Shown: positions 5,880-63,728 of the stretch, one piece after another | Layout: each line of letters starts with the position of its first letter | How positions within the stretch are numbered: position 1 is the stretch's first letter | NCBI RefSeq assembly: GCF_003991155.1 | Contig: NZ_CP031293.1 | Length of the DNA: 64,000 nt | Reading direction: 5' to 3' (one strand) | DNA from: Escherichia coli | GTDB taxonomy: Bacteria; Pseudomonadota; Gammaproteobacteria; Enterobacterales; Enterobacteriaceae | Translations under genes and position numbers: made by a program | The notes under the pieces: generated by a model | Told to the model about the DNA's origin: nothing | The model's input: only the letters and a program-made list of their open reading frames with translations | Database searches by the model: none

Positions 5880-6083
5880 ATGTTTGGTAACTTAGGACAG
5901 GCAAAAAAATATCTCGGCCAGGCGGCGAAGATGTTGATTGGCATTCCAGACTACGACAACTACGTCGAGCATATGAAGACCAACCATCCCGACAAGCCGT
6001 ACATGAGCTATGAAGAATTCTTCCGCGAACGCCAGAACGCACGCTACGGCGGCGATGGTAAAGGCGGTATGCGCTGTTGTTAA
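5880..6083 (+). CDS. yjiX: Small conserved protein YjiX (DUF466)
   Basis: 67 aa [17 protein letters not shown]...GMRCC, directly downstream of btsT as in E. coli. Confidence 0.85.
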
Positions 6084-6093
6084 CGGAGAGAGC

Positions 6094-7050
6094 ATGAACC
6101 CGATTGCAGTTACCCTACTCACCGGTTTTTTAGGCGCGGGCAAAACTACCCTGCTGCGCCATATTCTTAACGAACAGCACGGCTACAAGATTGCCGTGAT
6201 TGAAAACGAATTCGGCGAAGTCTCCGTTGATGATCAACTGATTGGCGACCGCGCCACGCAGATCAAAACGCTGACCAACGGCTGCATCTGCTGTTCGCGC
6301 TCCAACGAGCTGGAAGACGCACTACTCGACCTGCTGGATAATCTCGACAAGGGCAATATTCAGTTCGACCGTCTGGTCATTGAATGCACCGGCATGGCCG
6401 ATCCCGGCCCGATTATTCAGACCTTTTTCTCCCATGAGATTTTATGCCAGCGCTACCTGCTGGACGGCGTGATTGCGCTGGTGGATGCGGTACATGCCGA
6501 TGAGCAGATGAACCAGTTCACCATCGCCCAGTCACAGGTTGGCTACGCCGACCGTATTCTGCTGACTAAAACCGACGTCGCAGGCGAAGCAGAAAAACTG
6601 CGTGAACGCCTGGCGCGCATCAACGCCCGTGCACCGATCTACACCGTCACCCACGGCGACATCGACCTGGGCCTGCTGTTCAACACCAACGGTTTTATGC
6701 TGGAAGAGAACGTCGTCAGCACCAAACCGCGTTTCCACTTTATCGCGGACAAACAAAACGATATTTCGTCGATTGTGGTGGAACTGGATTACCCGGTAGA
6801 TATCAGCGAAGTTTCCCGCGTGATGGAAAACCTGCTGCTGGAGTCGGCGGATAAACTACTGCGTTACAAAGGGATGCTATGGATTGACGGCGAACCTAAT
6901 CGCCTGCTGTTCCAGGGCGTCCAACGCCTCTACAGCGCCGACTGGGACCGCCCGTGGGGCGATGAAACACCGCATAGCACAATGGTGTTTATCGGGATTC
7001 AGCTGCCGGAGGATGAGATTCGGGCGGCGTTTGCGGGGTTGAGGAAGTAA
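6094..7050 (+). CDS. yjiA: CobW/P47K-family GTPase YjiA
   Basis: ATG at 6094 gives 318 aa MNPIAVTLLTGFLGAGKTTLL... with GTP-binding P-loop and CxCC motif; ORF track 6010..7050 extends upstream in frame. Confidence 0.85.
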   Translation: MNPIAVTLLTGFLGAGKTTLLRHILNEQHGYKIAVIENEFGEVSVDDQLIGDRATQIKTLTNGCICCSRSNELEDALLDLLDNLDKGNIQFDRLVIECTGMADPGPIIQTFFSHEILCQRYLLDGVIALVDAVHADEQMNQFTIAQSQVGYADRILLTKTDVAGEAEKLRERLARINARAPIYTVTHGDIDLGLLFNTNGFMLEENVVSTKPRFHFIADKQNDISSIVVELDYPVDISEVSRVMENLLLESADKLLRYKGMLWIDGEPNRLLFQGVQRLYSADWDRPWGDETPHSTMVFIGIQLPEDEIRAAFAGLRK

Positions 7051-7083
7051 TTTTGGATGATGGCCGCCATGTGGCGGCCTGAA

Positions 7084-7386
7084 TTATTTTTTGTTCTGAT
7101 CGCGCAGCATCGCTTCACGTAAAATTGCGTTCAGGCGAGTTTGATAGCCTTTACCTGGTCGCTTCAACCATTCCATCACATCAGAATCAATACGCACCGA
7201 GGCCTGAGTTTTCAATGGCCGATAAAACTTACCGCGTTCTGCGTTAGACCATTGCTCATCGCTGGAAGGTGGGATATCACTGTAATCAATATCTTCGTCG
7301 GATTTATTCGCCAGCGCCTTCAGTTCGGCCTCATGCTGCACATCGAGTGTAGAGGAGGTCCCTCGTTTATGTTTAACCATGCTCAT
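7084..7386 (-). CDS. BrnA-like antitoxin (ribbon-helix-helix type)
   Basis: ATG at 7386 (MSMVKHKRGTSSTLD...); downstream of and overlapping the BrnT-like gene by 14 bp in the toxin-first order typical of brnTA. Confidence 0.6.
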   Translation of the reverse strand: MSMVKHKRGTSSTLDVQHEAELKALANKSDEDIDYSDIPPSSDEQWSNAERGKFYRPLKTQASVRIDSDVMEWLKRPGKGYQTRLNAILREAMLRDQNKK

Positions 7387-7654
7387 AGCGATTCCTCTCT
7401 TTACGATCTGCTTTTCGTGCACTGATGATTCGAATAATTTCATTTCCGCTTTCGAAACGGATGGTATGCGCAACCAGAATAACCACGATGCCGTAAACCA
7501 GGCCGATTGTCTGCCAGCGATACTCACCGTTTTCTATGCGTTCTTGCTGTGACAAATGTTGTGGATCATCAAACACTAACACCGCATCTTCAAAGCGGAT
7601 GCCATGTTTCACCCGATTACTTTTGGCCTTGTTTGCATCCCATTCAAACTCCAT
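7373..7654 (-). CDS. BrnT-like toxin (DUF497 ribonuclease toxin family)
   Basis: Translation MEFEWDANKAKSNRVKHGIRFEDA... matches the conserved N-terminal signature of BrnT/DUF497 toxins; start taken at ATG 7654 (in-frame alternatives at 7660 and 7669). Confidence 0.65.
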   Translation of the reverse strand: MEFEWDANKAKSNRVKHGIRFEDAVLVFDDPQHLSQQERIENGEYRWQTIGLVYGIVVILVAHTIRFESGNEIIRIISARKADRKERNRYEHG

Positions 7655-7856
7655 TGGCATAGTTGCCATCCCTAATTGTATATACAAAAATGTATCTACA
7701 ATTATTCTGCAATTATAGCGTTGATGTTGGAAATAGCATCACGTTTTGGATAATCAACCATGAAATTGACAATGAGTGAGTTGGACTTGATTCATCCAAT
7801 AGAATTTCTCGCCTGACATGGCACACTAAACACCTCGCTGTCGTTAAGGGATTACC

Positions 7857-9023
7857 GTGAAAAACTACAAAGTCATTACCCCGCTTTTTCCTACCTATGC
7901 GCAAGTTAAGGCTATGATGAAAGCCGTCTCAGGCTATTCCCTGAAAGCGGTGCGCAATATGATTACTGCCATTCACGAGCAAACCGGTACGCCGCAAAAA
8001 CCCGTTGACTGGTCAGAACCCGACCTGTGGATCAGCGAGCGCTTAACGGGTGAAGATGCCGACATCGCCCGTCGTATTTGGGATACCGATAATCACATCT
8101 TGAACCCGCGCCACAGCTACGGCTGCTACTTATTCCTCAACTATCCCCAGTTTGAGCTGATGGAAAGCACACCAGATGATATCTGGCAGCCCACCTCGCG
8201 CGGGCAAAAATTCCTGCAAGATGACGAAAAAACGCTGCGTTCACTGGACGACCAGGAAGGCATTCTGCAACTGCTTGAGCTGCTGGCTGGCCGGGAAATG
8301 TCGCGCCGCGCCGATTTATTGCCGGAATGGCAGGCCTTTTTGCATCAGCATTCGAAATTCGCGTCAGCAAGTTCAGTGAAAAGCACGCTCTACTCCCGTC
8401 TCTATAACCTTATCGACCGTGACATGGTTAACCGTGAAGGCATGAGCTATCGCATCACCGATACCGGGCGCGCCTGGCTTGGAAAAGCGTTGCCAGCACG
8501 AAAAAGCGATCCGCGTAAAGAGCTGTTGGAAGCGGTAAAACGCTATAACGAACAGCAAAAAGAGCTGCTGCGCGAACAAATCAGCACGATGAACCCGTAC
8601 AAATTTGAGCAACTGGTTGGTCAATTACTGGAAGCAATGGGCTACGAGCAGGTCGAAGTGACCAAAGCCTCAGGCGACAAAGGTGTGGACGTGATTGGTC
8701 AGGTGCAGGTCGGCATCACCACTATTACCGAAGTGGTGCAGGTCAAAAGAATGCAGAACACTATCACTCGCCCGTATATCGACCAGTTGCGCGGGGCGTT
8801 GCCTTACCACAAAGCCATTCGCGGTACGCTCATCACCACCGGGAAATTTGCGGCGAAATGTGCAGAAGCGGCGCTCTTTCCGGGTGCCGCGCCCATTACG
8901 CTTATCGACGGCGATCGTTTACTGGAACTGTTAATCGAAAATAACGTCGGCATTCGCCGCAGCAATGCAGTGGAATTGCTGGATGTGGATTTGCAGTTGT
9001 TTGATGAGCTGGAGATGGATTAA
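7857..9023 (+). CDS. Mrr-family (type IV-like) restriction endonuclease with extended N-terminal region
   Basis: C-terminal ~130 aa carry the Mrr catalytic core (GDKGVDVIG ... EVVQVKR ... LITTGKF ... LIDGDRL); winged-helix-like segment (SYRITDTGRAWL) upstream; start codon uncertain (GTG 7857 or internal ATG). Confidence 0.65.
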   Translation: MKNYKVITPLFPTYAQVKAMMKAVSGYSLKAVRNMITAIHEQTGTPQKPVDWSEPDLWISERLTGEDADIARRIWDTDNHILNPRHSYGCYLFLNYPQFELMESTPDDIWQPTSRGQKFLQDDEKTLRSLDDQEGILQLLELLAGREMSRRADLLPEWQAFLHQHSKFASASSVKSTLYSRLYNLIDRDMVNREGMSYRITDTGRAWLGKALPARKSDPRKELLEAVKRYNEQQKELLREQISTMNPYKFEQLVGQLLEAMGYEQVEVTKASGDKGVDVIGQVQVGITTITEVVQVKRMQNTITRPYIDQLRGALPYHKAIRGTLITTGKFAAKCAEAALFPGAAPITLIDGDRLLELLIENNVGIRRSNAVELLDVDLQLFDELEMD

Positions 9024-9067
9024 AGGGCGAAATCTGCCGCCTCTACCATTACAATACGGAGTTCATC

Positions 9068-9244
9068 GTGGTCAAAGCACCAACTAAAAAAGCCAAAGCA
9101 AAGAAAAGCTCTGAAGAAACATTATGTGATACCACAAACCAATTTCGTGGTAGCGTTGAGTCCTCCGAATACAAGCACGTGGTGTTAAGCCTCGTGCTCC
9201 AGAAACTCATCAGCGATAAGTTTGAAGCACGCCGCAAAAAATGA
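9068..9244 (+). pseudogene. Truncated 5' fragment of a type I R-M methyltransferase gene (hsdM N-terminal domain only)
   Basis: Reading frame VVKAPTKKAKAKKSSEETLCDTTNQFRGSVESSEYKHVVLSLVLQKLISDKFEARRKK-stop; the SEYKHVV...ISD motif is the hallmark of HsdM N-terminal domains; frame ends after 58 codons. Confidence 0.55.
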
Positions 9245-9903
9245 TTGCCGAAGCGTTAAAAGCTGATGGGATGGAAGAAATTTATTTTTCTGGCGACAAA
9301 AAAGCGGAATCTATCGATATTTTTGACGAAGATTATCTGGCGCGAATTAACAAGATCAAACTTCCAGCAACGAAGATCCTGTTATTACAAAAATTACTGG
9401 AAAAAGCGATCAGCGAGTTCAGGAAAGTGAACCAGTTGCAAGGGATTAACTTCACCCGCCGCTTCCAGGCGATTATAGATCGTTATAATGAGCGGCGAGA
9501 AGATGATGTACTCAACGGTGAAGAATTCGATACATTCAGTCAGGAAATGATTGATATTATCTATGATATTAAAACCGAAATGGGCACCTGGGCCGATTTA
9601 GGCATTGATATTGAAGAAAAAGCCTTTTTCGACATTCTTGCTCATATGCGCGATAAATATCAGTTCACCTATGACGATGAAAAAATGCTGTCACTGGCAA
9701 AAGAGATGAAAAGCGTTGTTGACAACACATCGAAATATCCTGACTGGAGTAAACGCGATGATATTAAAGCGAAACTGAAAGTTGAACTTATTCTGCTTCT
9801 ACACAAGCATAAGTTCCCGCCAGTAGCGAATGATGATGTTTATATGGGTGTGCTGGCACAGGCAGAGAATTTTAAAGAACATCATATGAGTGCTTTAAAT
9901 TAA
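9241..9903 (+). pseudogene. 3' fragment of a type I R-M restriction subunit gene (hsdR C-terminal DUF3387-like domain)
   Basis: 220-aa ORF with EEKAFFDIL ... DWSKRDDIKAKLKVELILLLHKHKFPP, the conserved C-terminal domain pattern of HsdR; no helicase or nuclease domains upstream; begins in a different frame immediately at the stop of the hsdM fragment. Confidence 0.6.
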
Positions 9904-9910
9904 TTATGAA

Positions 9911-9936
9911 GGCCGGATACACTTTGTTATCCGGCC
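9911..9936 (+). terminator. Stem-loop (REP-like palindrome) after the hsdR remnant
   Basis: GGCCGGATA ... TATCCGGCC 9-bp inverted repeat; weak T-tract, so terminator function uncertain. Confidence 0.35.
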
Positions 9937-10024
9937 ATTCTGAATTAACGTTAATTTCTCTTCCAGATCTTTCCAGTAACGCTTTTATTATTTTCTATTT
10001 TTAGCTGGACTTTCCCTGTATTTA

Positions 10025-10040
10025 CTGATGATATATCCAG
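10025..10040 (+). promoter_or_regulatory. Putative LexA box (CTG-N10-CAG) in the symE promoter
   Basis: CTGATGATATATCCAG about 80 bp upstream of the symE ATG; symE is a known SOS-regulated gene. Confidence 0.55.
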
Positions 10041-10047
10041 GTATTTA

Positions 10048-10124
10048 GCGCGGTGCGAATGTGCGCCAACACACCCGCACCGCTCATCACAATCCCTATT
10101 TCACGAGAATAGTAATCATGACTG
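10048..10124 (-). ncRNA. symR: SymR-like cis-antisense sRNA overlapping the symE 5' end (position inferred)
   Basis: By analogy with K-12 symE/symR; a TAGAAT -10-like hexamer lies on the minus strand just inside the symE coding start. Exact ends not determinable from sequence alone. Confidence 0.35.
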
Positions 10125-10456
10125 ACACGCATTCTATTGCACAACCGTTCGAAGCAGAAGTCTCCCCGGCAAATAACCGTCAATTAACCGTGAGTTATGC
10201 GAGCCGCTACCCGGATTACAGCCGTATTCCCGCCATCACCCTGAAAGGTCAGTGGCTGGAAACCGCCGGTTTTGCTACCGGCACGGCGGTAGATGTCAAA
10301 GTGATGGAAGGCTGTATTGTCCTCACCGCCCAACCACCCGCCGCCGAAGAGAGCGAACTGATGCAGTCACTGCGCCAGGTGTGCAAGCTGTCGGCGCGTA
10401 AACAAAGGCAGGTGCAGGATTTTATTGGGGTGATTAGTAGCAAAACGCCACGCTAA
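10118..10456 (+). CDS. symE: SOS-induced toxin-like protein SymE
   Basis: ATG at 10118: [48 protein letters not shown]... recognised as SymE (YjiW). Confidence 0.85.
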
Positions 10457-10497
10457 GTTTCTCTCCCCTTCCCCATACGGAAAGGGGAATTGCCCCC

Positions 10498-10662
10498 TCA
10501 CTCCACATCTTCCCTGCGTAACCCAATATCCCTCAACCGCTCATCACTCATCTGCTGTAACACCCGCCGGGCCTGCATTTGCCGCCGCCAACGCCTCACT
10601 GCCTGCCAGAGTTGCACAAGTCCAATAAACGGTGCTTTAGCTTTGTTTTCGTGAAATTCCAT
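10498..10662 (-). CDS. yjiS: DUF1127 small protein YjiS
   Basis: Not in the ORF track (54 aa); minus-strand translation MEFHENKAKAPFIGLVQLWQAVRRWRRQMQARRVLQQMSDERLRDIGLRREDVE with the DUF1127 signature. Confidence 0.8.
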   Translation of the reverse strand: MEFHENKAKAPFIGLVQLWQAVRRWRRQMQARRVLQQMSDERLRDIGLRREDVE

Positions 10663-10838
10663 CTGCTGCCTCCTCATCTTTCAGAGGCTTCATCATCCGC
10701 CTTCTGGCAGCTCACAATACAGATGCAAATATTAGTTTTATTTAACATACAGACAGGTTAAAACAGCATCTGCATCCGGTTTTTTAGCCTCATCTGTACC
10801 GGTTTTTCCCTCTGTATGGTCCAAATAAGGAATACAGC

Positions 10839-12251
10839 ATGACGCGTTATCAACATCTGGCGACTCTGCTTGCCGAGCGGATTGAGCAAGGGCTGTATCG
10901 TCACGGGGAGAAATTGCCGTCGGTGCGCAGCTTGAGTCAGGAGCACGGCGTCAGTATCAGCACCGTGCAGCAGGCGTACCAGACGCTGGAGACGATGAAG
11001 CTCATCACTCCGCAGCCGCGTTCGGGTTATTTTGTCGCACAACGGAAAGCCCAGCCGCCAGTACCGCCGATGACGCGTCCGGTGCAGCGCCCGGTGGAAA
11101 TTACCCAGTGGGATCAGGTGCTGGATATGCTGGAGGCGCATAGCGACAGTTCCATTGTTCCGTTAAGTAAAAGCACGCCGGATGTCGAAACGCCCAGCCT
11201 GAAACCGCTGTGGCGGGAGCTAAGCCGGGTGGTGCAGCATAATCTGCAAACCGTTCTCGGTTATGACTTGTTAGCCGGTCAGCGAGTGTTGCGAGAGCAG
11301 ATTGCCCGCCTGATGCTCGACAGCGGCTCGGTGGTCACCGCCGATGACATCATCATTACTAGCGGCTGCCATAACTCGATGTCGCTAGCGTTAATGGCGG
11401 TGTGTAAACCGGGCGATATTGTCGCGGTCGAATCCCCCTGTTATTACGGTTCGATGCAGATGCTGCGCGGCATGGGCGTGAAAGTGATTGAAATCCCCAC
11501 CGATCCAGAAACAGGCATCAGCGTTGAAGCGCTGGAACTGGCGCTGGAGCAGTGGCCGATTAAAGGCATCATTCTGGTGCCAAACTGTAATAATCCGCTG
11601 GGATTTATTATGCCGGACGCGCGCAAACGGGCCGTTCTCTCTCTCGCTCAGCGTCATGATATTGTGATTTTTGAAGATGATGTCTACGGCGAACTGGCAA
11701 CGGAGTATCCGCGCCCGCGGACCATTCATTCCTGGGATATCGACGGGCGAGTGCTGTTGTGCAGCTCGTTCAGTAAAAGTATTGCTCCAGGCCTGCGCGT
11801 GGGTTGGGTCGCACCGGGGCGTTATCACGATAAACTGATGCATATGAAATACGCCATCAGCAGCTTTAATGTGCCGTCCACGCAAATGGCGGCGGCAACG
11901 TTTGTGCTGGAAGGTCACTATCATCGCCATATCCGGCGGATGCGGCAGATCTATCAGCGCAATTTGGCGCTTTATACCTGCTGGATACGGGAATATTTTC
12001 CCTGCGAAATCTGTATTACGCGCCCGAAAGGCGGATTTTTACTGTGGATAGAATTGCCTGAACAGGTCGATATGGTTTGCGTTGCGCGGCAGCTATACCG
12101 CATAAAAATCCAGGTGGCGGCAGGCTCGATTTTCTCAGCTTCCGGCAAATACCGTAATTGTCTGCGCATCAACTGCGCTTTGCCGCTCAGCGAAACCTAT
12201 CGCGAAGCACTGAAGCAAATTGGCGAAGCCGTGTATCGGGCAATGGAATGA
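10839..12251 (+). CDS. yjiR: MocR/GntR-family PLP-dependent transcriptional regulator
   Basis: 470 aa; N-terminal GntR-type HTH (LPSVRSLSQEHGVSISTVQQAY) plus aminotransferase-like domain. Confidence 0.85.
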   Translation: MTRYQHLATLLAERIEQGLYRHGEKLPSVRSLSQEHGVSISTVQQAYQTLETMKLITPQPRSGYFVAQRKAQPPVPPMTRPVQRPVEITQWDQVLDMLEAHSDSSIVPLSKSTPDVETPSLKPLWRELSRVVQHNLQTVLGYDLLAGQRVLREQIARLMLDSGSVVTADDIIITSGCHNSMSLALMAVCKPGDIVAVESPCYYGSMQMLRGMGVKVIEIPTDPETGISVEALELALEQWPIKGIILVPNCNNPLGFIMPDARKRAVLSLAQRHDIVIFEDDVYGELATEYPRPRTIHSWDIDGRVLLCSSFSKSIAPGLRVGWVAPGRYHDKLMHMKYAISSFNVPSTQMAAATFVLEGHYHRHIRRMRQIYQRNLALYTCWIREYFPCEICITRPKGGFLLWIELPEQVDMVCVARQLYRIKIQVAAGSIFSASGKYRNCLRINCALPLSETYREALKQIGEAVYRAME

Positions 12252-12368
12252 ATTCGAAATAGTGGCGAGCCCCCTGATTTCCTCTCACGAATAGCGTGTG
12301 ACTCGTTTTATCTTTGCAGGGTCATCTCCACGTTCCAGTATGGCTTAGGCAAATTGCGCTTCGTTCAT

Positions 12369-12467
12369 GCCGGATGCCATGTGAACGCCTTACCAGGTCT
12401 ACAAAATTTTTAAAGTTCAATATATTGAATGGGTTATGTAGACCTGATAAGCGTAGCACATCAGGCA
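12369..12467. repeat. REP/BIME-like pair of inverted palindromic units
   Basis: GCCGGATGCCATGTGAACGCCTTACCAGGTCTAC and an inverted partner GTAGACCTGATAAGCGTAGCACATCAGGCA in the yjiR-rpnD intergenic region. Confidence 0.55.
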
Positions 12468-12493
12468 GCTTTGCGTTTGTCATCGGCCTCTGA

Positions 12494-13450
12494 TTAGTAC
12501 TCGATCCATGGATCGCGCTTGCTTTCAGGCAAGGGCTGATCTAATGCCTGCATTTGCTCTGCCGAAAGTCCGGTATATCGTTGTATCCATTCAGGATCCG
12601 CCCCATTCTGCAACAACAATCGGAGGAGGCTCTTTTCCCCTTCTTCTTTCCCTTCTTTCCTCCCCCTCTCCCTTCCCAACAGCCATCCATCATTATGAAT
12701 TCGCTCTGCAATCGTCATTATTCGCTCCCTGTGTTGTGGCATTCGACGGATAAGTTCGCTGATAAACTCATTAAAACGCGCTTCATCGCCAGTCAGTAAA
12801 ATGTAATTTAACAGCGCGGTTATCTGGCTGTCATTAGCGCACCCTGTAACCAGTAATACTGCCAGTTGATCAATAAGCCCCATTAGATCGCGCTGGCGAA
12901 TATGCTTTTGGATCAACTCCAGCAGGGCGACTCTGCGATGCTGCACAATCTCGTCGTCTGGCACGACAGTGACATCCACCAGCGGGAACGCTGCGGTATA
13001 AAGCTTCCGTGCGGTAGCCGGGTCGGCAAATTCATCCAGCCAGCACAAAGACCAGGGGTAAGGACTACGGCTACCGTGATAAAACAGCATCGGGATGACC
13101 AGCGGTAGCGGCCGGCGTTTATCATGCTCGATATGGCGCTGCATCACCGCCATGGAATATCGCATCAGGCGAAAGGCCATATGGATATCCTCGCGGCTCT
13201 GATGTTCAATCACCACATAAATATAGCCATCTCCTTCGCGGGTCTTTACCGACCACAGAATATCGGAATGTAGCGCCCGCAATTTTTCATCGACAAAGCT
13301 GGCGTATTCCAGTTTTAAGCTGTCGAGATCGCACAGTTCACGTAAATCTTTGGGTAAGTGGATCTCCATAAAATCCCGCGCGGTGTCAGGGTGGGTGAGA
13401 AAAGATTTAAATAATGCGTCATGCGGCGTGCTGGTCGTGAAGTTTGTCAT
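12494..13450 (-). CDS. rpnD: Rpn-family recombination-promoting nuclease (PD-(D/E)xK, transposase_31-like)
   Basis: 318-aa intact ORF with Rpn/YhgA-like N-terminus ([26 protein letters not shown]). Confidence 0.75.
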
Positions 13451-13916
13451 GGCGATCCGTCACCTGTAGATAAGATGGCCCGACTGTAGCGACTAACAAA
13501 ACCATTCTCACCCGGCAATTTCTCGTTCCCCGAGGTGCTTTCCAGGCTATTTTTGTTCCTCTGCAAACGATACATTTTTCCGGAAACAGGCTCGCATTTT
13601 ACATTTCCTGTACCCGGCAGATATTCCCCTTTCCACCGCACTCTTTTGATTAACCGCAAATTTTAATTACACTTAAGGTGTATATTTTCTATGCAACCCA
13701 TCAATTCAAGAGGTGTAATGTGCTGATGACTATTTGTAATCGTTATACATTCTGACCTGGAGTCAGAAGGTATTTCTCTGTCTGTATGTTCACAGGCAGT
13801 GTGGTTGATTACATGAAATTCAGTACATTTGCCCGTCTCGCCTGCCTTTCGTCATTACCGACGGTATTGAATTTCGTTTTCCCCATTGGGATTCTCCGGA
13901 CAAGGAGTTGTTTGTT

Positions 13917-46684: not shown

Positions 46685-48418
46685 ATGGAAATCATATTAC
46701 CAAAAAACACCTTATATGACAGAGAGCAAAATGTCTTTTTTGAAAAGGTTACGGCCTTAATTGGCGAAAATGGTGCTGGTAAGTCCTCGATTTTACAATC
46801 CGTATTTATTAACTGTTTAACAAAAAAATATCTACCAGAAACAAAGGTTGTTTGTTTTTCTTCTGGACAAAATGAGAAATACTCAACGTACTTCTCTGAT
46901 TATCTTTCTCATGAAAGGCAAGCAAATAGAGGTCTTAACTTAGATTGTTGTTATTACGATAAATCATGGTCAAAGTTACTAATATTCATATCCACAATTT
47001 GTAAATCAAATGGTCTTGTTAGAAATTTTTTATGTGAGAAAGGCTATATTGATGTATCAGATGATAAAAATGATGATATATCAAGCAAGCTTACATTGAC
47101 GGTCCGAGTAAATTCGGCTTACGTTAATCGAGTAAAAATGGCATTAGCACAAGAAGAACAAGGTATTGAAAATACTTTAAGGTATTCAGCTTATCATAGG
47201 ACTTTAGAAAGTTTCATTAATAATATTGTTAATGCTGATTATGATTTCGAGTCTCCACTTGAAGCTCAAGAGATCTTGCTAACTCATTCAAATTTTTTCA
47301 ATCCATCATTTGAGGAAGCAGAAGATTCCTTTTTTGATCCTATCATAACATTTTTCACTCAAGCAGCAGATAATGATTACTTTATAATAAAACCATCATT
47401 ACAGCTAGAGTTTAAAAATAATATCGAACTGAATGATATTAGTGATGGGGAATATCAAGTACTCTTTTTATACTCTCTGCTTGATATTTTTGATAGTCCT
47501 AATACTTTATTCTTATTAGATGAGATAGATTCCCATTTACATTACAAGAATATTGAGCTCTTATGGCATCGACTACATAGTATTAATGGTTATGCGATAA
47601 CAACCACCCATCTATTAGACTCAATTACAGCTACTGATAATGATTTTAAAAACTTAAAGATTGTTGATAAAGGAAAAATAAAAGAAGATGATAAAATAAA
47701 AACTATAATAGAACGTTTATCTGTCTTGACAAGAATATCAGACGTACAGTTCGAAGTGTGTCGTAAACTAGAAAACATAGTATTGATGGATGATTATAAT
47801 GATTGGACTATTTTTTATGCCTTAGCAAAGAAAAAAGGACTTGATGTATCAAAGTTAGATGGCCTCCATGCAATAAAACAGTCCTCTGGTTACGATAATT
47901 TAAATCAAGAGTTCGCAAAACCAAAAATAGAGTGGATTAATTCGCTTTTAAATGTAAATACTGATAAAAAAGTCAAAAGAATATTCATGATCTGCGACAA
48001 AGATGAGGCTCCAATTACCTATCAGAAAGATGGAGTTCAAGTCAATGGAAGTGAATATTCAAAACATATAGCGAAGTTAGAAAATAAAAACAAAAATAAA
48101 ATATATCTCCTTGCATGGAAAAGAAGAGAAATAAAAAACTACTTACTATCTTATACGGCATTGTCCCATCATGGATTTATCGAGCAAATAAACAATGGAG
48201 ATCTGCCAGCTAACAGTTATTTAAAAGAAAACGATCCTGGAGATAATTCAGCAATTAGCCGGCTTAACGTAAAACATTGCATCACAAAAATAATTGATTC
48301 TGATGGTATAGGATTAGATATATCAAAACTTTACTCATATATAGAACTTATACCACCTGCTGAGATCAGTGAAGATATAGTGAACATGTACAATTTTTTG
48401 GTGGAGAAATTAAAATGA
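46685..48418 (+). CDS. OLD/PARIS-like ABC-type ATPase (AAA_15/21-like) with C-terminal Toprim-like (RloB/DUF4435-like) domain
   Basis: 577 aa; Walker A LIGENGAGKSSIL, Walker B/D-loop LFLLDEIDSHLH, C-terminal DxD-type motif IFMICDKDE; very AT-rich coding sequence; stop overlaps the next gene's start (ATGA). Confidence 0.6.
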   Translation: MEIILPKNTLYDREQNVFFEKVTALIGENGAGKSSILQSVFINCLTKKYLPETKVVCFSSGQNEKYSTYFSDYLSHERQANRGLNLDCCYYDKSWSKLLIFISTICKSNGLVRNFLCEKGYIDVSDDKNDDISSKLTLTVRVNSAYVNRVKMALAQEEQGIENTLRYSAYHRTLESFINNIVNADYDFESPLEAQEILLTHSNFFNPSFEEAEDSFFDPIITFFTQAADNDYFIIKPSLQLEFKNNIELNDISDGEYQVLFLYSLLDIFDSPNTLFLLDEIDSHLHYKNIELLWHRLHSINGYAITTTHLLDSITATDNDFKNLKIVDKGKIKEDDKIKTIIERLSVLTRISDVQFEVCRKLENIVLMDDYNDWTIFYALAKKKGLDVSKLDGLHAIKQSSGYDNLNQEFAKPKIEWINSLLNVNTDKKVKRIFMICDKDEAPITYQKDGVQVNGSEYSKHIAKLENKNKNKIYLLAWKRREIKNYLLSYTALSHHGFIEQINNGDLPANSYLKENDPGDNSAISRLNVKHCITKIIDSDGIGLDISKLYSYIELIPPAEISEDIVNMYNFLVEKLK

Positions 48419-50322
48419 ACACCTCTTTATTTGAAGATCTACTTACACTAATCAAGAAAAAGAGTTCGATAAGGAATACAGAACAAGCAGTAGAGTTAAT
48501 TTCATTATTTATTTTTTTACATTATATAAAATTATATCTTTATGAAAATGATAAAAGATTTTCAGATATAAAAAACATATCAAGCAACAACATTAATGAA
48601 ATTAAATATTATTATCAGCAACTATATGAAAGTTTTATTTTCTCGATAGATATAAAAAATATAAACCACGACATGCTTGAAAAGCTCAGGAGTAAGATAG
48701 GTTTTTTAATTAATAACATCAATGACCATGAAATAATTAAATATATAGATTATTCTATTTCGCAGATACATTCACTTACAGAATTCTATCAATATGCAAA
48801 TTCTTATCAATCTTTAATTCTTAGGATGGTTAATGAATCGGGTCGTTCAGGTGAATATGTTACTCCATCTGCTTTAGTTCAGCTCATGGTTGAAATGTTA
48901 TCACCTACAGATGGCACATCAATCTACGACCCCGCATGTGGAACTGGGGGTTTATTAATAGAGTCAGCACGATATATTAAAGGCAACAGTTTAAACAAAA
49001 ACTTAAATTTAAATTATTCCCTTATTGGTAATGACACATCATCATTTGCCTGTCTAATCTCAATTGTTAACCTTTTAATCAATAAAGAATTTAATTTTGA
49101 AATAATACTAAAAGATAGCTTAGATATAAATTATAAGAATACAAAATATGACTTTATTTTAACTAACCCACCATTTGGGAAAAAGAGCGGTTGGGATAAT
49201 ATTCATATTGACACACATTATAAAGGACCTAATCTAGACTATTACTTCCTGGAGCATGTTATTGACTCTCTCGCTGTTAATGGCAAAGCAGCCATAATAT
49301 TACCAGAGCGTTTTTTATATGATGTGAGTAAAGAGTGCATCACTCTTAAAGATAAGATCTTCCAAAATTATAATTTAGATTGTATTTTATCTATACCGTC
49401 AGGTGCATTGCTTCCTTACACTGCAGTAAAATTATGTATTCTTTTTATAAGTAATCCTGGCCCAACAGATAGAATATTTTTCTACAATTTAAATAATGGT
49501 GAAAAATACTCACGTACAAATATTATAAAATTCGATGATTTTATAGATTTTTTAGAGTCAGCAAAAAATAGAACAATAACTGAACACTCCTGGATTATCA
49601 ATATTAGTGATACACCTTCATCTTATAACTTACTCTTAAAAGATAAAGAGCGAAACTCATATGAGTTTCTTAGTGATTCTATAGTTAACATTGAACAGAC
49701 AATACGTAATAATGAATTATTACTAACAGAGTTGTCTTTATTAAGAGAAAAAATAGCAATCTTAGAGTCAACAATAAAAAATCATTCGCATGAATATGAA
49801 TTTGAGAGACTTAAAGTTGGAAATATTGCAATAGTAAAATCCGGAAATTTATTACAAAAAAACAGGCTGTTACCCACTGGACCAATTCCTGTATACGGTG
49901 GAAATGGAGTTATTGGATATAACAATGAGGCAATGGTAAATGGTGAAAATATTATTATTGGTAAGGTCGGAGCTCTTTGCGGAAACGTTCGGTATGTTCA
50001 AGGTGATATTTGGGTGACAAATAACTCATTAATTATTAAGAATTATTTACCAAATAAAGTTTTAACACCCTACCTTGCAAAGTTATTATCTACTTTAAAC
50101 TTAAGAAAGCTCGCCGTTGGTACCGCTCAACAATATTTAACCACAACACAAATAAAAAATGTAGAAATTAGCATTCCACCTTTAACGACCCAGCATAAAT
50201 TAAATATGTGGCTTGATGAGTTAGATAATACCCTTGAACAATATAATAAGCTCATTGAAAAAATAATGAATGATAAGCGAGAACTTAAAGAGAATTTGTA
50301 TAAAGGTCTTTTAATAGAATAG
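48415..50322 (+). CDS. HsdM-like N6-adenine DNA methyltransferase fused to one HsdS-type target-recognition domain (M-S fusion)
   Basis: 635 aa; motif X EYVTP, motif I DPACGTGG, motif IV TNPPFG; C-terminal ~180 aa resemble a single TRD plus HsdS conserved helix (KVGNIAIVKSGN ... VTNNSLIIKN ... TTQHKLNMWLDELD); AT-rich; translationally coupled to the upstream gene. Confidence 0.7.
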   Translation: MNTSLFEDLLTLIKKKSSIRNTEQAVELISLFIFLHYIKLYLYENDKRFSDIKNISSNNINEIKYYYQQLYESFIFSIDIKNINHDMLEKLRSKIGFLINNINDHEIIKYIDYSISQIHSLTEFYQYANSYQSLILRMVNESGRSGEYVTPSALVQLMVEMLSPTDGTSIYDPACGTGGLLIESARYIKGNSLNKNLNLNYSLIGNDTSSFACLISIVNLLINKEFNFEIILKDSLDINYKNTKYDFILTNPPFGKKSGWDNIHIDTHYKGPNLDYYFLEHVIDSLAVNGKAAIILPERFLYDVSKECITLKDKIFQNYNLDCILSIPSGALLPYTAVKLCILFISNPGPTDRIFFYNLNNGEKYSRTNIIKFDDFIDFLESAKNRTITEHSWIINISDTPSSYNLLLKDKERNSYEFLSDSIVNIEQTIRNNELLLTELSLLREKIAILESTIKNHSHEYEFERLKVGNIAIVKSGNLLQKNRLLPTGPIPVYGGNGVIGYNNEAMVNGENIIIGKVGALCGNVRYVQGDIWVTNNSLIIKNYLPNKVLTPYLAKLLSTLNLRKLAVGTAQQYLTTTQIKNVEISIPPLTTQHKLNMWLDELDNTLEQYNKLIEKIMNDKRELKENLYKGLLIE

Positions 50323-50402: not shown

Positions 50403-53400
50403 TTAATAATGCTCCTCAATATACCCATACGCCTTCTGGAACAACTCTTTATCTTTCCCTAGTCCAAACTGGGCCAAGGTCAGTAAAAGCGCCTTTTGGA
50501 TTTCGCGCGGGCCACTGTTGGAATTTTGCCAGCCATCAAAGCGGGTAGCTTTCACAATTTTATCAATTTGCTCTACAACATCACCGATTAACTTAGGGGT
50601 AGTTTCCGGACGTGTTTCGAGGAAAAGCTTAGTCAACGCCTGTTTATTATCAGCTTCAGTTACTGGGCGCTCGCCCGTTTCGCGCTCGGCTTGAACGGTA
50701 TCTTTCGCTGCATCCAACAGGCCTTTCAACCAGTCAATGGCCTTGATAACACCAGCTTCATAGTCCTGACGCAGTTTTTCAAGGCGCTCGCCCAATGCCA
50801 CAAATTTAGGATCATGACTGCCGCGCAAACGTCCCATAAGATCAATCTCCAGGCGTTTGGCACGTTGTTCCTGCTCTTTAGCGGTCAGGGTAAAAATAGC
50901 GTGCTCGTCCATAACCAACTCGTCAATATCATCGCGAATACGATTGATATCAGTATGCTCATGGATCATCTTGATTGTTTCGGGGCCAAGGGCAGCCCAA
51001 ACAAGCGCACCTGTCTGCCCTACCGGACGCACCGATTCATAAATTTGCGCCAGCCATTTATAGTCCTGACGATAAGAGGTCAAAAAAGGATCTGGGTTGA
51101 TAGCTGACCATAACTTGGATAACACACCAAAGCTGGCAGCGAATTCATCGCGTTTCTCGTTGGTCGGCAGGCATTCCTGCGCGGCCATAATACCTTCAAA
51201 ACCAGCTATGGACCGATCCACACCAGGGAAGAAGGACAAACATTTATTCAGTTGTAACGGCAATAGCTCTTTAAATGCCTCAATTCCCTCTACAACTCCT
51301 TCAATTTCTTCAGGGTTATAGGCCAGAGCGGTACGCAGATTTTCGAAAACGCCGAGGTAGTCGATAATTAATCCCATGTCCTTGCGTACAGTATCGGTTT
51401 CGTACAACCGGTTGGTTCGGCACATGGCCTGAAGAAGAGTATGATCGCGTAGAGGCTTATCGAGGTACATGCAGTAGCAAATCGGGGCATCAAAACCCGT
51501 AAGCAGCTTGGCGGTTACGATAATAAGCTGTAATGGATGTTCAGGATCTTTAAAGCATTCAATCAGATCCTTTTGCACCTGTTCTTCGGCATCAATGTGC
51601 TGCCAGCGTTCAAAATCGACTTGTTTGACTGGCAGCTCCAACTCATCATGCCATTTAAGCCAATCCTTGTTGAGCTTGTCTTTTTTGCCACCCTCTTCAA
51701 CTTTAACCGGAGCCTGGTCAACGTTCATAACCACTTCAACCGCATCAAAACCAAGCTTTTCACCGAGCAAATAATACATCTGCACACAGGCTTCGCGATC
51801 GTATACCACAACCATGCCTTTCATCTTTTTCGGCATAACATGGTTGGTAAAATGCTCAGCAATATCATTACTCACCGCAGCCATACGCCTAGGGGATTTC
51901 AGCATGATTGCCAGCTTGCCTGCACGCCTGGACAATGCTGCTTTTTCTTCTTCATCCAGGTTGTTTTCGGTAGCCAGTTGCTCGAACTCTTCATTGATGG
52001 CATCACGATCCACTCGGAGTTCAGCCAGCCGAGGTTCGAACTTCACCGGGTTAGTTGCGCCATCCCGGATCGACTGCTTATAGCTATAGCGGCTCATATA
52101 GCGACCTGGATCTTCTTCGGCACCGAACAATTTGAACGTATTACGATCAATGCCAGAAATCGGAGTACCAGTCAGGCCATAGAAGTGGGCATTGGGCAAC
52201 GCCCAGCGCATTTTCTCGCCTAATCCCCCTTCCTGTGTACGGTGAGCTTCGTCAACCAACACAATGATATTGTCCCGGTTGTTCAGGCCATTAGGGTTGC
52301 TATCGTCAATTTCGATATCTTTAAATTTAAAGATGGTGGTGATTAAAATGCCACGGCTGTCTTGTTCTATGTATTCACCCAACTTTTTGCAGCTTTGCAC
52401 TTTAATCAGATTCTTAACGTCGGCTCCGCCAAAGGTCTCGTTAATTTGGCTGTCCAGATCTCGCCGGTCCACAACGATAAGTACCGTCGGGTTTTTTAAC
52501 GCATTATCGGCACGTAGCATTTTGGCGGCGTAAAGCATCAACAAGGATTTACCCGATCCCTGGAAATGCCAAATAAGACCTTTTTTTGGATAGCCTCTGC
52601 GAACACGCTCAACAATTTGTTTTGCAGCTTCAAATTGCGGATAACGCGGCAGGATTTTAACGCGTTTAGGTGGAGTATTTTTGCCCGTTTTGACGGTTGA
52701 AAATAATGCAAAAGATTCAAGTAACTGCAATAAGGTTTGTGGATTTAACAAACTCTCACAGCTGTTGAGTACCGATGCTAATCCCGGCAGAATTTCATCA
52801 CGAAGCTCAGTATTATGCCAGGGCCCCCAGTCTTTAACTCTGGCATTAATGGCACCATAGGCAAAGGTTTTTCCTTCGCTGGCAAAGCACAGCAAGTTAG
52901 GTACAAAGAAAGATTCAACATTTTTCCAGTAGTACTTTTTGCCACCCATGAAATCGGCAGCACCGTCTTGCCAGGTCACGCTGGGGCGTGTTGCGGTTTT
53001 AACTTCGCCCACTACTAGCGGTATGCCGTTCACATAAAGAACAATATCAAAATAGACTTCAGTGGCCGCGATATAGCGAACCTGCTGCGCCACCACAAAG
53101 TGGTTGTTCTCTATATTGTCAAAATCAATCAGATTGATGGTGATATGGTCGCCATTCTTACCAAAAGGCAAGGTTTTGTCGGCCATCAACCATTCCTGGA
53201 AGTTTTCATTGGCCTTTACCAAGCCGGTATGGCGGGCTTCTAAAACCACTCCTCGCAGTTTGTAAATGACCTCATCGGCATAGTCAGGCTGTCTGCCGAT
53301 ATCAGGGTTTAACGAACAAAGCGCGTCTTTTAGCCACTCATCAACGAAGATATCCTGCGCTTGTTTAGGCAGGTTTTCACCGTGGCAGTAAGTCCACTTG

Positions 53401-53465
53401 ACTCCGCTTAAACCTTTTAAACGGTCGATAATTCCATTTTCTGTGACGGTTTGTTCGTTAAACAA
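50403..53465 (-). CDS. hsdR: Type I restriction enzyme R subunit
   Basis: 1020 aa; SF2 helicase motifs (GSGKSLLMLYAA Walker A, VLVDEAHRTQ DEAH box); last gene of a tightly packed four-gene operon. Confidence 0.9.
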   Translation of the reverse strand: MFNEQTVTENGIIDRLKGLSGVKWTYCHGENLPKQAQDIFVDEWLKDALCSLNPDIGRQPDYADEVIYKLRGVVLEARHTGLVKANENFQEWLMADKTLPFGKNGDHITINLIDFDNIENNHFVVAQQVRYIAATEVYFDIVLYVNGIPLVVGEVKTATRPSVTWQDGAADFMGGKKYYWKNVESFFVPNLLCFASEGKTFAYGAINARVKDWGPWHNTELRDEILPGLASVLNSCESLLNPQTLLQLLESFALFSTVKTGKNTPPKRVKILPRYPQFEAAKQIVERVRRGYPKKGLIWHFQGSGKSLLMLYAAKMLRADNALKNPTVLIVVDRRDLDSQINETFGGADVKNLIKVQSCKKLGEYIEQDSRGILITTIFKFKDIEIDDSNPNGLNNRDNIIVLVDEAHRTQEGGLGEKMRWALPNAHFYGLTGTPISGIDRNTFKLFGAEEDPGRYMSRYSYKQSIRDGATNPVKFEPRLAELRVDRDAINEEFEQLATENNLDEEEKAALSRRAGKLAIMLKSPRRMAAVSNDIAEHFTNHVMPKKMKGMVVVYDREACVQMYYLLGEKLGFDAVEVVMNVDQAPVKVEEGGKKDKLNKDWLKWHDELELPVKQVDFERWQHIDAEEQVQKDLIECFKDPEHPLQLIIVTAKLLTGFDAPICYCMYLDKPLRDHTLLQAMCRTNRLYETDTVRKDMGLIIDYLGVFENLRTALAYNPEEIEGVVEGIEAFKELLPLQLNKCLSFFPGVDRSIAGFEGIMAAQECLPTNEKRDEFAASFGVLSKLWSAINPDPFLTSYRQDYKWLAQIYESVRPVGQTGALVWAALGPETIKMIHEHTDINRIRDDIDELVMDEHAIFTLTAKEQEQRAKRLEIDLMGRLRGSHDPKFVALGERLEKLRQDYEAGVIKAIDWLKGLLDAAKDTVQAERETGERPVTEADNKQALTKLFLETRPETTPKLIGDVVEQIDKIVKATRFDGWQNSNSGPREIQKALLLTLAQFGLGKDKELFQKAYGYIEEHY

Positions 53466-53466
53466 T

Positions 53467-54633
53467 TTATTGTCCCCTCAGAAGAATATTCAAATAACTG
53501 GACTTGAGTTTACGAATTTTTTGAAGCCTTGATTTAGCTTCTCTATAACTGTTTTCGGCTAAATGTAATATATCCTTATATTTCCCAAGCTCTCTTGATG
53601 GTGGTATAACCATCTTCTGAGAATGTACATCGGCATCATTAACAGCCGGGAAACTTGTACCAACTGCCAAATTGGTTAATGAATAAGTGAATTGCTTCGA
53701 CAAAGTGAAATAATAAATAAAATCGGACAAATCATTTTTTGCCCTTAGAACAGTAAAACCTGTTGATGCTATTGAATCATTCAATATTTCAGACACATAA
53801 AACGTAGCTCTATGATTGGGTCTAACAGTGCTAACAACAATATCTTTTTCCTTAAGAATACGCCGAGCTCGGCTGGGGGCTTCAGCGAAATGGTATTCTT
53901 TAGGAGTATCGACAAAACCAGGAAAAGTCACTGAAGATATATCTATATACCTAATCAGCTTATTTTTATTGGCATCATTACTTAACAAGTCAAAATTAAT
54001 ATTTGATACATCCTTCAATCTAACTTTGTTATATCCAAATGGCAGTTTTTCTTTTCGATCAAATGTAGTCAACCGATCAATTAATCTTTGAAATAAATTT
54101 AATGCAGACCTTTCAGTCTCATTTGCACAATGTAATACTTGTTCGATTTTTTTTAAAGAATTTAAAAAATCAACTTGCAGATCCATTTCAGGAATAATAA
54201 ATTCCTGCTGACTTAAAACTTTCCATTTTATCGTTGGAGACAATGACCCCTCCGAAATTGCTACTGCACGATTCATGAAAGTATCAGACTGCATAATAAA
54301 GGGTAAAAACTCAGGTATTACAGTATTTGAATTTGCCTCCAGAACCATGGCATGAGCCGAACAGATACAATCCCAATCTGCTACCGCGACTTTACGTTGA
54401 TAAGCACGACGCTTACCAAAAATAATCTGGCCTTTTTTCACTAAAAGCTTCTGCCCTTCAACGTCACTGGGTGTACCATGACGTTTGATTTTCAGGCTGT
54501 CAGGGTCTAAATGCTCCAAACCGACATAAATTTCAAGGTCTGTCTCGCTCGGTTCCACTCGTTTAGAGATATGTTTAGCGATATCGCCAAACTTCACCAT
54601 TTGCCAGCCTTCAGGTAATTGCTGTTCTGTCAT
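53467..54633 (-). CDS. hsdS: Type I R-M specificity subunit (two TRDs)
   Basis: 388 aa with two TRD-like halves separated by a conserved central region; AT-rich; abuts hsdM2 and hsdR. Confidence 0.85.
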   Translation of the reverse strand: MTEQQLPEGWQMVKFGDIAKHISKRVEPSETDLEIYVGLEHLDPDSLKIKRHGTPSDVEGQKLLVKKGQIIFGKRRAYQRKVAVADWDCICSAHAMVLEANSNTVIPEFLPFIMQSDTFMNRAVAISEGSLSPTIKWKVLSQQEFIIPEMDLQVDFLNSLKKIEQVLHCANETERSALNLFQRLIDRLTTFDRKEKLPFGYNKVRLKDVSNINFDLLSNDANKNKLIRYIDISSVTFPGFVDTPKEYHFAEAPSRARRILKEKDIVVSTVRPNHRATFYVSEILNDSIASTGFTVLRAKNDLSDFIYYFTLSKQFTYSLTNLAVGTSFPAVNDADVHSQKMVIPPSRELGKYKDILHLAENSYREAKSRLQKIRKLKSSYLNILLRGQ

Positions 54634-57629: not shown

Positions 57630-57872
57630 TGTTGTCTCTTTTCGATCCTGCAGTGCTTGAACTCTCAGCAACTCATGGATTTCACAGTAAAAAAGCAAGT
57701 AAAGCGATTCCACAACCACCTGAGCGTTCAATATGTATGACGCCTTTACCCAAGTTGCTTAAATCAAGGAAATTGCCAGAGATAATACTCTGGCATCAGA
57801 ATGATACCAAGTTGAAGGGCTGATTTCCGCATCAATACCTTGTGGTAATAGGGGATTACTCTTTTACCCTTA

Positions 57873-60150: not shown

Positions 60151-60212
60151 TCCATTCAGCCACCTTATCCAGGGGAAAAACACCGATAAGATGGCTAATC
60201 AAAATGTCTGTT

Positions 60213-63200: not shown

Positions 63201-63728
63201 TTGACGCCACTCCTGCTGCAAGGCTGCATATCGTGCTTCCCGTTCTTCATCCGTTTCGGCAGTCTTATCAATGCTGTCATCAAAGTTGATAGAGAACGAG
63301 GTATGGATTGTCTTGTATTTGTCATACTGCCCAATATCACCAATCGAAAATGCTCCTTTTGGCAAAGGTTCAAGCAGGTCTCTGGGAATGGAGGTCGCTG
63401 GCGTCGGATATAAAAAACCCTCACGGCTTAGCAAGGCTGGCGTCACTAGCGGGGTAACAATATCAGGTGCGCCTGCGGAACGGTCCTTACCATGCTGCAG
63501 TAACCGAAAATAAACTTTTGGGCGCAAGACGACATCGACCGTTTCGACATCGTCTTTTTCTCCCTCAAAAAATTTACTGACAATCGCTTCGTCAAGACGT
63601 CCCGCCGCTATCCCATGCCAGTGAGTGAAATTTTTGGCGTCTTTCCGTTCAAAACTGCCCTTTCCTGACTCAGCATCTGCAAGCGAGTTGCGCCAGTATG
63701 AGGCAAACCCTAAAGCATTTTCATCCAT
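60213..63728 (-). CDS. SF1 (Upf1/Dna2-like) helicase fused to C-terminal PLD-family nuclease; type II Mokosh-like
   Basis: 1171 aa; Walker [14 protein letters not shown], Walker [11 protein letters not shown], helicase C-terminal motifs ([17 protein letters not shown]), PLD HxK(x)4D motif [21 protein letters not shown]. Confidence 0.7.

Follow-up and report, generated by a model that had tools for sequence, protein, structure and literature searches.

We asked what became of the resident type I restriction-modification system between yjiA and yjiR in this Escherichia coli genome. A first-pass annotation of the window (the whole 64,000-nucleotide stretch of DNA that was analysed) had proposed that the mrr-hsdRMS-mcrBC block of K-12 is absent between these genes and that the region has been remodelled. 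The genes identified in the window agree with those that PGAP annotates in another genome, 100% identical to the window over positions 6000-13500, in which both hsd pieces are flagged as partial pseudogenes. The following genes frame the interval:

6094 to 7050, + strand: yjiA, the conserved left anchor (PGAP annotation of the identical genome; K-12 synteny).
10498 to 10662, - strand: yjiS, a DUF1127 gene (Pfam DUF1127, E=2.8e-12).
10839 to 12251, + strand: yjiR, a conserved framework gene (PGAP annotation).

The yjiA-yjiR interval measures 3,788 bp, matching the "about 3.8 kb" of the first-pass annotation, and all of the elements that it listed were found where it had placed them. In K-12 MG1655 the same interval spans 16,334 bp (the annotation had given over 10 kb) and contains mrr, hsdR, hsdM, hsdS, symR/symE, mcrB, mcrC, yjiV, yjiT and yjiS; the K-12 gene list of the annotation was correct, and the block is indeed absent here. 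By locus comparison, the anchors on the left (yjiX-yjiA) and on the right (yjiS-yjiR-rpn-mdtM-yjiN) are the same genes in K-12, NC101, EC958 and O157:H7. The interval belongs to the immigration control region, defence hotspot 36 of Enterobacteriaceae. Sibley and Raleigh reportedly described cassette-like variation of this region in 2004, and the window likewise has changeable defence content flanked by conserved anchors. The available text of a 2025 EcoSal Plus review (PMC12707154) lists types IA, IB and ID and three type IV families among the contents of the region, describes brnAT, symE/symR and rpn as its toxin-antitoxin modules, and reports that enterobacterial immigration control regions hold a type I system in only 36% of cases; that text does not mention an hsdM::hsdR deletion allele. 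The locus fits this repertoire, as a type I relic and the type IV, brnAT, symE/symR and rpn classes were all found. The locus is a specific decayed variant inside the described range of cassette variation, and variation of this kind is ordinary and already well documented.

We compared the interval with its K-12 counterpart. Both occupy the slot from yjiA to yjiS/yjiR and both have symE/symR, and K-12 pairs its type I system with an Mrr-family type IV enzyme, as the type ID cassette described below does. The K-12 system is EcoKI, of type IA with the order R-M-S, whereas that of the window is of type ID with the order M-S-R. The two Mrr proteins have only the catalytic domain in common (31% identity, confined to the C-terminal 170 aa). 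In K-12, mrr points towards yjiA, but in the window the Mrr-family gene runs parallel to yjiA, so the opposite relative orientation noted at first pass was correct. The window lacks mcrBC, yjiV and yjiT, and it carries brnTA, which is absent from K-12. Between symE and yjiS, where K-12 has mcrBC/yjiV/yjiT and O157:H7 has gmrSD, only 41 bp are left in the window, so this slot is empty. Beyond the match to the Mrr catalytic domain, no K-12-like mrr, hsdRMS or mcrBC sequence was found in the interval. Across 5,426 complete E. coli genomes, the set used for all population counts, the full K-12 block (defined as ≥80% of the mrr-hsdRMS-symE-mcrBC block) is present in 583 (10.7%); within the block, symE alone has matches in most genomes. 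The K-12 arrangement is a minority state, not the reference state.

We consider it very probable that the interval is a standard alternative cassette of type ID in which the type I system was destroyed by one internal deletion. The cassette has the order yjiA-brnA-brnT-mrr-like-hsdM-hsdS-hsdR-symR/symE-yjiS and is intact in NC101 and in the ST131 strain EC958, where the type I system is EcoMII. The order and flanks in EC958 (yjiA-brnA-brnT-mrr-like-hsdM...hsdR-symE-yjiS-yjiR-rpn-mdtM) are identical to those of the window; relative to EC958, the window is without the methylase, the specificity subunit and a functional nuclease, with 5,435 bp gone and a 1-bp frameshift. Because this cassette, intact elsewhere, normally includes brnTA and the different Mrr gene, these are not signs of remodelling, and the earlier description of a region remodelled from K-12 is misleading. 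The remains of the type I system are as follows:

9068 to 9244, + strand: 5' remnant of hsdM, 58 codons and a TGA (Pfam HsdM_N, E=6.9e-6; PGAP partial pseudogene).
9236 to 9241, + strand: a run of six A, seven in intact hsdM (alignments to intact genomes).
9239 to 9251, + strand: deletion junction, with one copy of a 13-bp imperfect repeat left (alignments; overlap of BLAST pieces).
9241 to 9903, + strand: 3' remnant of hsdR, 220 codons (Pfam T1RH-like_C, E=9.5e-54; PADLOC REase_I, E=1.7e-84).

The hsdM remnant is collinear with the beginning of the complete gene in NC101 and EC958, and the hsdR remnant corresponds to residues 868-1087 of the 1,087-aa type ID HsdR, with 97% identity to EC958. 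Members of type ID have high HsdR/HsdM sequence identity and complete hsdM, hsdS and hsdR genes, they complement one another genetically, and the adenines that they methylate are spaced 6 bp apart. With only 58 hsdM and 220 hsdR codons left and hsdS absent, the locus is a type ID relic and not a functional member. The R subunit of EcoMII is reported to be 92% identical to that of StySBLI, the type ID prototype, and EcoMII of EC958 methylates AACN4CTTT (PMC4659465). By way of this published identity, the sequence of the remnant places it in type ID (the StySBLI family). The first-pass annotation was thus right that a resident type I system has been destroyed at this locus, but the lost system was of type ID and not EcoKI. 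It is hardly credible that a K-12-like arrangement (mrr-hsdRMS(EcoKI)-symE-mcrBC) was deleted here and then rebuilt. Although symE/symR and the flanking yjiA, yjiS and yjiR are common to K-12, a 5' piece of hsdM followed by a 3' piece of hsdR is impossible to derive from an R-M-S operon, the remnant is nearly identical to type ID HsdR, and the sampled genomes with the same scar match the K-12 block at symE only. The intact parent cassette is, moreover, present in 863 genomes, against just the 583 with the full K-12 block.

The rest of the type ID cassette is retained:

7084 to 7386, - strand: brnA, antitoxin, 100 aa (Pfam BrnA_antitoxin, E=4.2e-17; annotated BrnA).
7373 to 7660, - strand: brnT, ribonuclease toxin, 95 aa (Pfam BrnT_toxin, E=5e-24; annotated BrnT).
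7857 to 9023, + strand: predicted Mrr-family type IV (modification-dependent) nuclease, 388 aa, full length (Pfam Mrr_cat, E=1.6e-29).
10047 to 10123, - strand: symR, antisense RNA antitoxin (Rfam RF01809, full length, 88.9 bits vs a gathering threshold of 61).
10118 to 10456, + strand: symE, toxin (Pfam SymE_toxin, E=4.8e-21).

The brnT and brnA genes have the make-up of a BrnT/BrnA type II toxin-antitoxin module: they are small and adjacent, both domains are predicted, and the toxin gene lies first, its 3' end sharing 14 bp with the beginning of brnA. Likewise, symE and symR have that of a SymE/SymR type I toxin-antitoxin module, with a predicted symR antisense to symE and overlapping its start at 10118; symE is a conserved internal landmark common to the IA, IB and ID cassettes. 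The nuclease gene is assigned to the Mrr family by its predicted C-terminal Mrr_cat (PD-QxK) domain (residues 243-359), and its alignment with EcoKMrr takes in the VQVK/VQAK motif. The protein is 98% identical to the one adjoining EcoMII in EC958, and PADLOC matched it over its full length to PDC-S02 (E=2e-207) and also to mREase_IV (E=1e-27). Protein alignment gave no significant similarity to EcoKMrr in its N-terminal ~215 aa. The only signal from this N-terminal region was a winged-helix-type Pfam match (HVO_A0261_N) below threshold, at 18 bits vs a cut-off of 35, and no relative was found in the PDB.

We examined how the deletion could have arisen. Intact systems carry an imperfect direct repeat of 13 bp, AAATGATTGC(C/A)GA, in hsdM and again in hsdR, and the BLAST pieces that match intact genomes overlap exactly on it (positions 140-152 of query 9100-9400). 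Compared with EC958, the 5,435-bp deletion runs from about codon 58 of hsdM to codon 868 of hsdR. It probably arose when the short repeats misaligned independently of RecA, through either replication slippage or illegitimate recombination. Since two genes 1.6 and 3.3 kb long are expected to share about five 10-mers by chance (1611 x 3255 / 4^10), the repeat is a plausible substrate and not proof of mechanism. In a single step the catalytic domain of the methylase would have been lost along with the specificity gene and the HsdR nuclease and motor domains, so that the cell would not have passed through a lethal state of restriction without modification. The loss of one A from the run of seven shifts the frame, and the hsdM remnant ends at the TGA at 9242-9244, which overlaps the ATG at 9241 of the 220-codon hsdR reading frame. 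Without this slip, which we place after the deletion, the two remnants would read in frame as an HsdM(1-58)::HsdR(868-1087) fusion.

The hsdM::hsdR junction occurs in 75 of the 5,426 genomes (1.4%). The first-pass annotation had accepted that it would be refuted if its arrangement were the common one across E. coli; at this frequency the arrangement is rare. Full-length type ID hsdR is found in ~863 genomes and some trace of it in 1,126, among which 263 (about a quarter) have a relic only. M172-1 likewise keeps a 3' piece of type ID hsdR directly upstream of symE. This relic is 211 bp long compared with 665 bp in the window, it has a 3'-5' exonuclease gene upstream and gmrSD downstream of symE, and M172-1 is without brnTA, the Mrr-like gene and the hsdM 5' end; its different length and neighbours indicate an independent event. 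We compared three of the 75 scar-bearing genomes base by base. Despite differences at 12-16 of 937 positions, they have the same junction and the same run of six A. Two or more flanking backgrounds carry the scar, one with mdtM and full-length yjiR, the other with truncated brnT and yjiR and no mdtM. Deletions at short repeats are able to recur, and the different backgrounds could reflect several independent origins of the identical deletion at the 13-bp repeat. We regard this as unlikely because all three sequences also have the separate loss of one A, and because the scar copies are closer to each other (98.3% identity over 301 bp) than to the sampled intact alleles (at most 94.4% over the 162-bp hsdR-3' piece); with several equally good 10-mers expected, repeated use of one of them is also not expected. 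Finding this junction together with the slip in two or more diverged backgrounds instead points to one old event. The single deletion would have been followed by divergence, by transfer between lineages through homologous recombination in the flanking framework genes, or by both.

The C-terminal region of HsdR docks the subunit onto the methylase core, which raises the question of whether the hsdR tail is still in use. The 220-codon reading frame would then be alive and translationally coupled to the 58-codon hsdM leader, for instance as a decoy for a type ID methylase core. The frame is open and free of indels in all three of the diverged lineages, the stop and start overlap as ATGA at 9241-9244, the upstream region of hsdM is kept, and two of the three comparisons give dN/dS values of 0.24 and 0.32. 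However, the third comparison gives 0.88, and all of these ratios come from tiny counts (3-6 synonymous and 5-11 non-synonymous changes). A rough estimate gives a neutral frame with ~14 substitutions about an even chance of acquiring no stop. The start codon is just that of native Met868, which lies within the repeat, the host is without a type ID methylase core to bind, PGAP calls the piece a pseudogene, and the persistence of 211-bp relics elsewhere indicates that persistence needs no function. A live tail is accordingly improbable on these data, and it is slightly more doubtful still that a coupled, free 220-aa HsdR C-terminal domain has been kept for interfering with related type ID assembly or for otherwise modulating restriction.

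The first-pass annotation had also reported a different, intact type I system about 40 kb away, in the island on the nanS side. This was borne out by four complete reading frames just beyond nanS (50403 to 57731, - strand), annotated intact and ~41 kb from the scar:

56130 to 57731, - strand: M1, an hsdM with an NPPF motif (Pfam; complete ORF).
54634 to 56133, - strand: M2, an hsdM with an NPPY motif (Pfam; complete ORF).
53467 to 54633, - strand: hsdS (Pfam; complete ORF).
50403 to 53465, - strand: hsdR (Pfam; complete ORF).

M1 and M2 are 47% identical (VANPPFS vs FANPPYS). Non-canonical M1M2SR systems have two similar M genes, the upstream one with NPPF and the one adjoining S with NPPY, followed by R (Morgan et al. 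2016, PMC5100572). On its motifs and gene order the island system is classified as an M1(NPPF)-M2(NPPY)-S-R type I system, and m6A and m4C are its predicted modifications. The scar and the island system are not linked: an ST80 genome carries the same scar with different content beside nanS.

Judged from gene content, the yjiA-yjiR locus would now give no type I restriction or methylation, while it would keep the full-length predicted modification-dependent nuclease of the Mrr family and two toxin-antitoxin modules (BrnTA and SymE/SymR). The type I defence of the clone would be the unrelated M1-M2-S-R system. The scar predicts that no EcoMII-type m6A methylation or restriction arises from the locus, and AACN4CTTT methylation is not expected in the strain. 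Modification-dependent restriction by the Mrr-family enzyme is predicted to continue in the scar-bearing clone, which is predicted to mark its own DNA by the M1M2SR system, probably with m4C besides m6A. Beyond bookkeeping, the finding matters little. The predicted state of restriction and methylation bears on transformation, conjugation and phage work with the clone, and the relics (263/1,126) are a small, concrete example of the frequent in-place decay of restriction systems at a defence hotspot.

The interval between yjiA and yjiR spans 3,788 bp in the window as against 16,334 bp in K-12 MG1655. The MG1655 interval comprises mrr, hsdR, hsdM, hsdS, symR/symE, mcrB, mcrC, yjiV, yjiT and yjiS, in agreement with the K-12 gene content given in the first-pass annotation. 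Gene calls in the window were concordant across the ORF listing, Pfam and Rfam, and agreed with the PGAP annotation of a genome that has the identical sequence at 6000-13500. They also bear out the earlier account of the genes present and of the direction in which the Mrr gene runs.

Genes of the immigration control region in the window
6094-7050, + strand: yjiA
7084-7386, - strand: brnA
7373-7660, - strand: brnT
7857-9023, + strand: Mrr_cat nuclease, 388 aa
9068-9244: hsdM 5' fragment, 58 codons
9241-9903: hsdR 3' fragment, 220 codons
10047-10123, - strand: symR
10118-10456, + strand: symE
10498-10662, - strand: yjiS
10839-12251, + strand: yjiR

Between yjiR and mdtM, an Rpn-family gene (12494-13450, - strand) is an intact 318-codon ORF. 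The same protein accession occurs in EC958, where the ORF is also intact; the K-12 counterpart, rpnD, is a pseudogene by annotation.

The absence of the K-12 block was confirmed, and the earlier interpretation was borne out in part. Derivation from the K-12 operon was ruled out because the remnant runs from an hsdM 5' piece to an hsdR 3' piece, which is incompatible with the R-M-S order of K-12. We searched window 7051-10060 against 5,426 complete E. coli genomes. Many of them align with the window from brnA and brnT through the Mrr-like gene into the start of hsdM, and then run on into an intact hsdM. The gene order in NC101 and in EC958 (ST131) is yjiA-brnA-brnT-Mrr-like-hsdM-hsdS-hsdR-symE-yjiS-yjiR, which is the window arrangement plus a complete type I system. 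Between the window and EC958, the Mrr-like protein is 98% identical, and the hsdR relic shares 97% identity with residues 868-1087 of the EC958 HsdR (1,087 aa).

The EC958 system, EcoMII, has the order hsdM-hsdS-hsdR, adjoins Mrr and methylates AACN4CTTT; in the R subunit it shares 92% identity with StySBLI, the prototype of type ID (PMC4659465). The putative assignment of the cassette to type ID rests on that ST131 methylome paper and on a 2025 review (PMC12707154). NCBIfam offered only generic HsdR and HsdM models and none that matched the Mrr-like protein or the relic, and the family was not assigned from it. A PDB sequence search with the Mrr-like protein gave no match, and a promoter and terminator scan found sites no more numerous than in shuffled sequence. 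In O157:H7, the same slot instead holds a type IB alternative of the EcoAI family, in R-M-S order and with gmrSD-type genes. Such ingredients are exactly those that the review lists for the region, namely types IA, IB and ID, three type IV families, brnAT, symE/symR and rpn; it finds that only 36% of the enterobacterial loci contain a type I system (PMC12707154).

We aligned the scar with hsdM and hsdR of NC101 and EC958. The window tracks hsdM as far as AAATGATTGCCGA and then hsdR; the intact sequences are AAATGATTGCCGAT in hsdM and AAATGATTGCAGAA in hsdR. The junction is thus the one remaining copy of a 13-bp repeat whose two copies differ by one mismatch (9239-9251), and these are precisely the positions at which BLAST pieces of intact genomes overlap. 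The loss amounts to 5,435 bp when measured against EC958 and 5,462 bp against NC101, whose hsdS is longer. Both genes encode Met-Ile-Ala at the repeat in the same frame, so the two would originally have been fused in frame. The window has A6 at 9236-9241 where intact hsdM has A7; as a result the hsdM fragment stops at TGA 9242-9244, overlapping the ATG (9241) of the hsdR ORF. The deletion probably arose by misalignment between short repeats. By our own arithmetic, chance alone would give two genes of such lengths about five 10-mers in common, and we therefore regard the repeat as an available substrate and not a special signal.

The scar junction, defined by coverage of at least 80% of window 9100-9400, was found in 75 of the 5,426 genomes (49 at ≥99% identity and 26 at 95-99%). 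A full-length type ID hsdR is present in 863 genomes and any trace of it in 1,126, which leaves about 263 genomes with relics only. The K-12 mrr-to-mcrC block was detected over at least 80% of its length in 583 genomes (351 at ≥99%), and all five sampled matches with 100% identity were laboratory derivatives of K-12. From evenly spaced matches of the same search, we estimate that about 365 more genomes appear to carry mrr-hsdRMS-symE without mcrBC. A similar estimate from the window 7051-10060 search places brnTA beside yjiA in roughly 2,000 genomes, often without any restriction genes.

Three scar genomes were compared. The junction and A6 are identical in all three, which differ in their flanks and by substitutions at 12-16 of 937 positions, and are nearer to one another than to the sampled intact alleles. 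Given this common junction and mutual closeness despite divergence, we read the scar as one old deletion event followed by divergence, and it has probably spread by recombination since. In the ST80-type scar genomes (L008 and L004), brnT is cut to about 100 bp, yjiR, also truncated (about 315 bp), is fused against rpn, and mdtM is absent; decay in this lineage reaches well beyond the hsd genes. In one of the two, symE is frameshifted.

The type ID hsdR relics adjoining symE take several independent forms. A separate 211-bp class, counted among the roughly 263, adjoins symE in a different mosaic. Strain M172-1 (L012 4923-9907) carries yjiA, a 3'-5' exonuclease gene, a 210-bp type ID hsdR 3' relic, symE and gmrSD-type genes. 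Strain C9 (L006 12034-13804) has a near-empty locus, yjiA-brnA-brnT-IS1-mdtM, that lacks symE, yjiS, yjiR and rpn, so even the "conserved" genes of the inner framework are not always retained.

Beyond nanS lies a dense defence island. Its type I system (50403-57731, - strand) has complete ORFs throughout, in the order M1-M2-S-R. The M subunits are 47% identical to each other, with NPPF in the upstream M and NPPY in the S-adjacent M. Its gene order and motifs match those of the non-canonical type I systems that Morgan et al. (PMC5100572) showed to methylate one strand as m6A and the opposite strand as m4C. The system occurs in 109 of the 5,426 genomes, and in about 40 of these it is essentially the same as in the window. 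A link between the scar and gain of this system was rejected, since the content beside nanS differs in an ST80 genome bearing the same scar; their co-occurrence is a property of the clone and not a functional link.

Other genes lie nearby. Window 46685-50322 (+ strand) encodes a 577-aa AAA_21/SMC-type ATPase, with weak PADLOC matches to AriA, mad3 and PtuA, whose gene overlaps that of a 635-aa protein in which an N6 methylase is fused to one type I specificity domain. The otherwise nearly identical strain LWY24 has this fusion annotated as two genes. A TIR-domain protein (57873-58910, + strand) is a full-length match to the Thoeris ThsB model (PADLOC E=2e-153); its neighbours are hsdM1 and an Mrr_cat gene, and neither resembles ThsA. 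This second Mrr_cat nuclease (59095-60183, - strand) belongs, like the Mrr gene beside yjiA, to PADLOC candidate family PDC-S02. It adjoins a gene for a 1,171-aa SF1 helicase-PLD protein (60213-63728, - strand), a full-length Mokosh MkoC match (1,684 bits).

The 220-codon hsdR ORF, which starts at the ATGA overlap, is open in all three scar lineages. Its dN/dS values in three comparisons were 0.24, 0.32 and 0.88, from very few changes (at most 14 substitutions), and were given no weight as a sign of function. By a rough estimate, the chance that no stop would arise under neutrality is about even, and shorter hsdR relics persist in other genomes. We consider it very improbable that the relic keeps a function. 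Cassette-like variation of the locus has reportedly been known since 2004, and the window locus, a decayed form of an alternative cassette that is both known and common, is not novel. The scar is useful for predicting the restriction and methylation behaviour of the clone.
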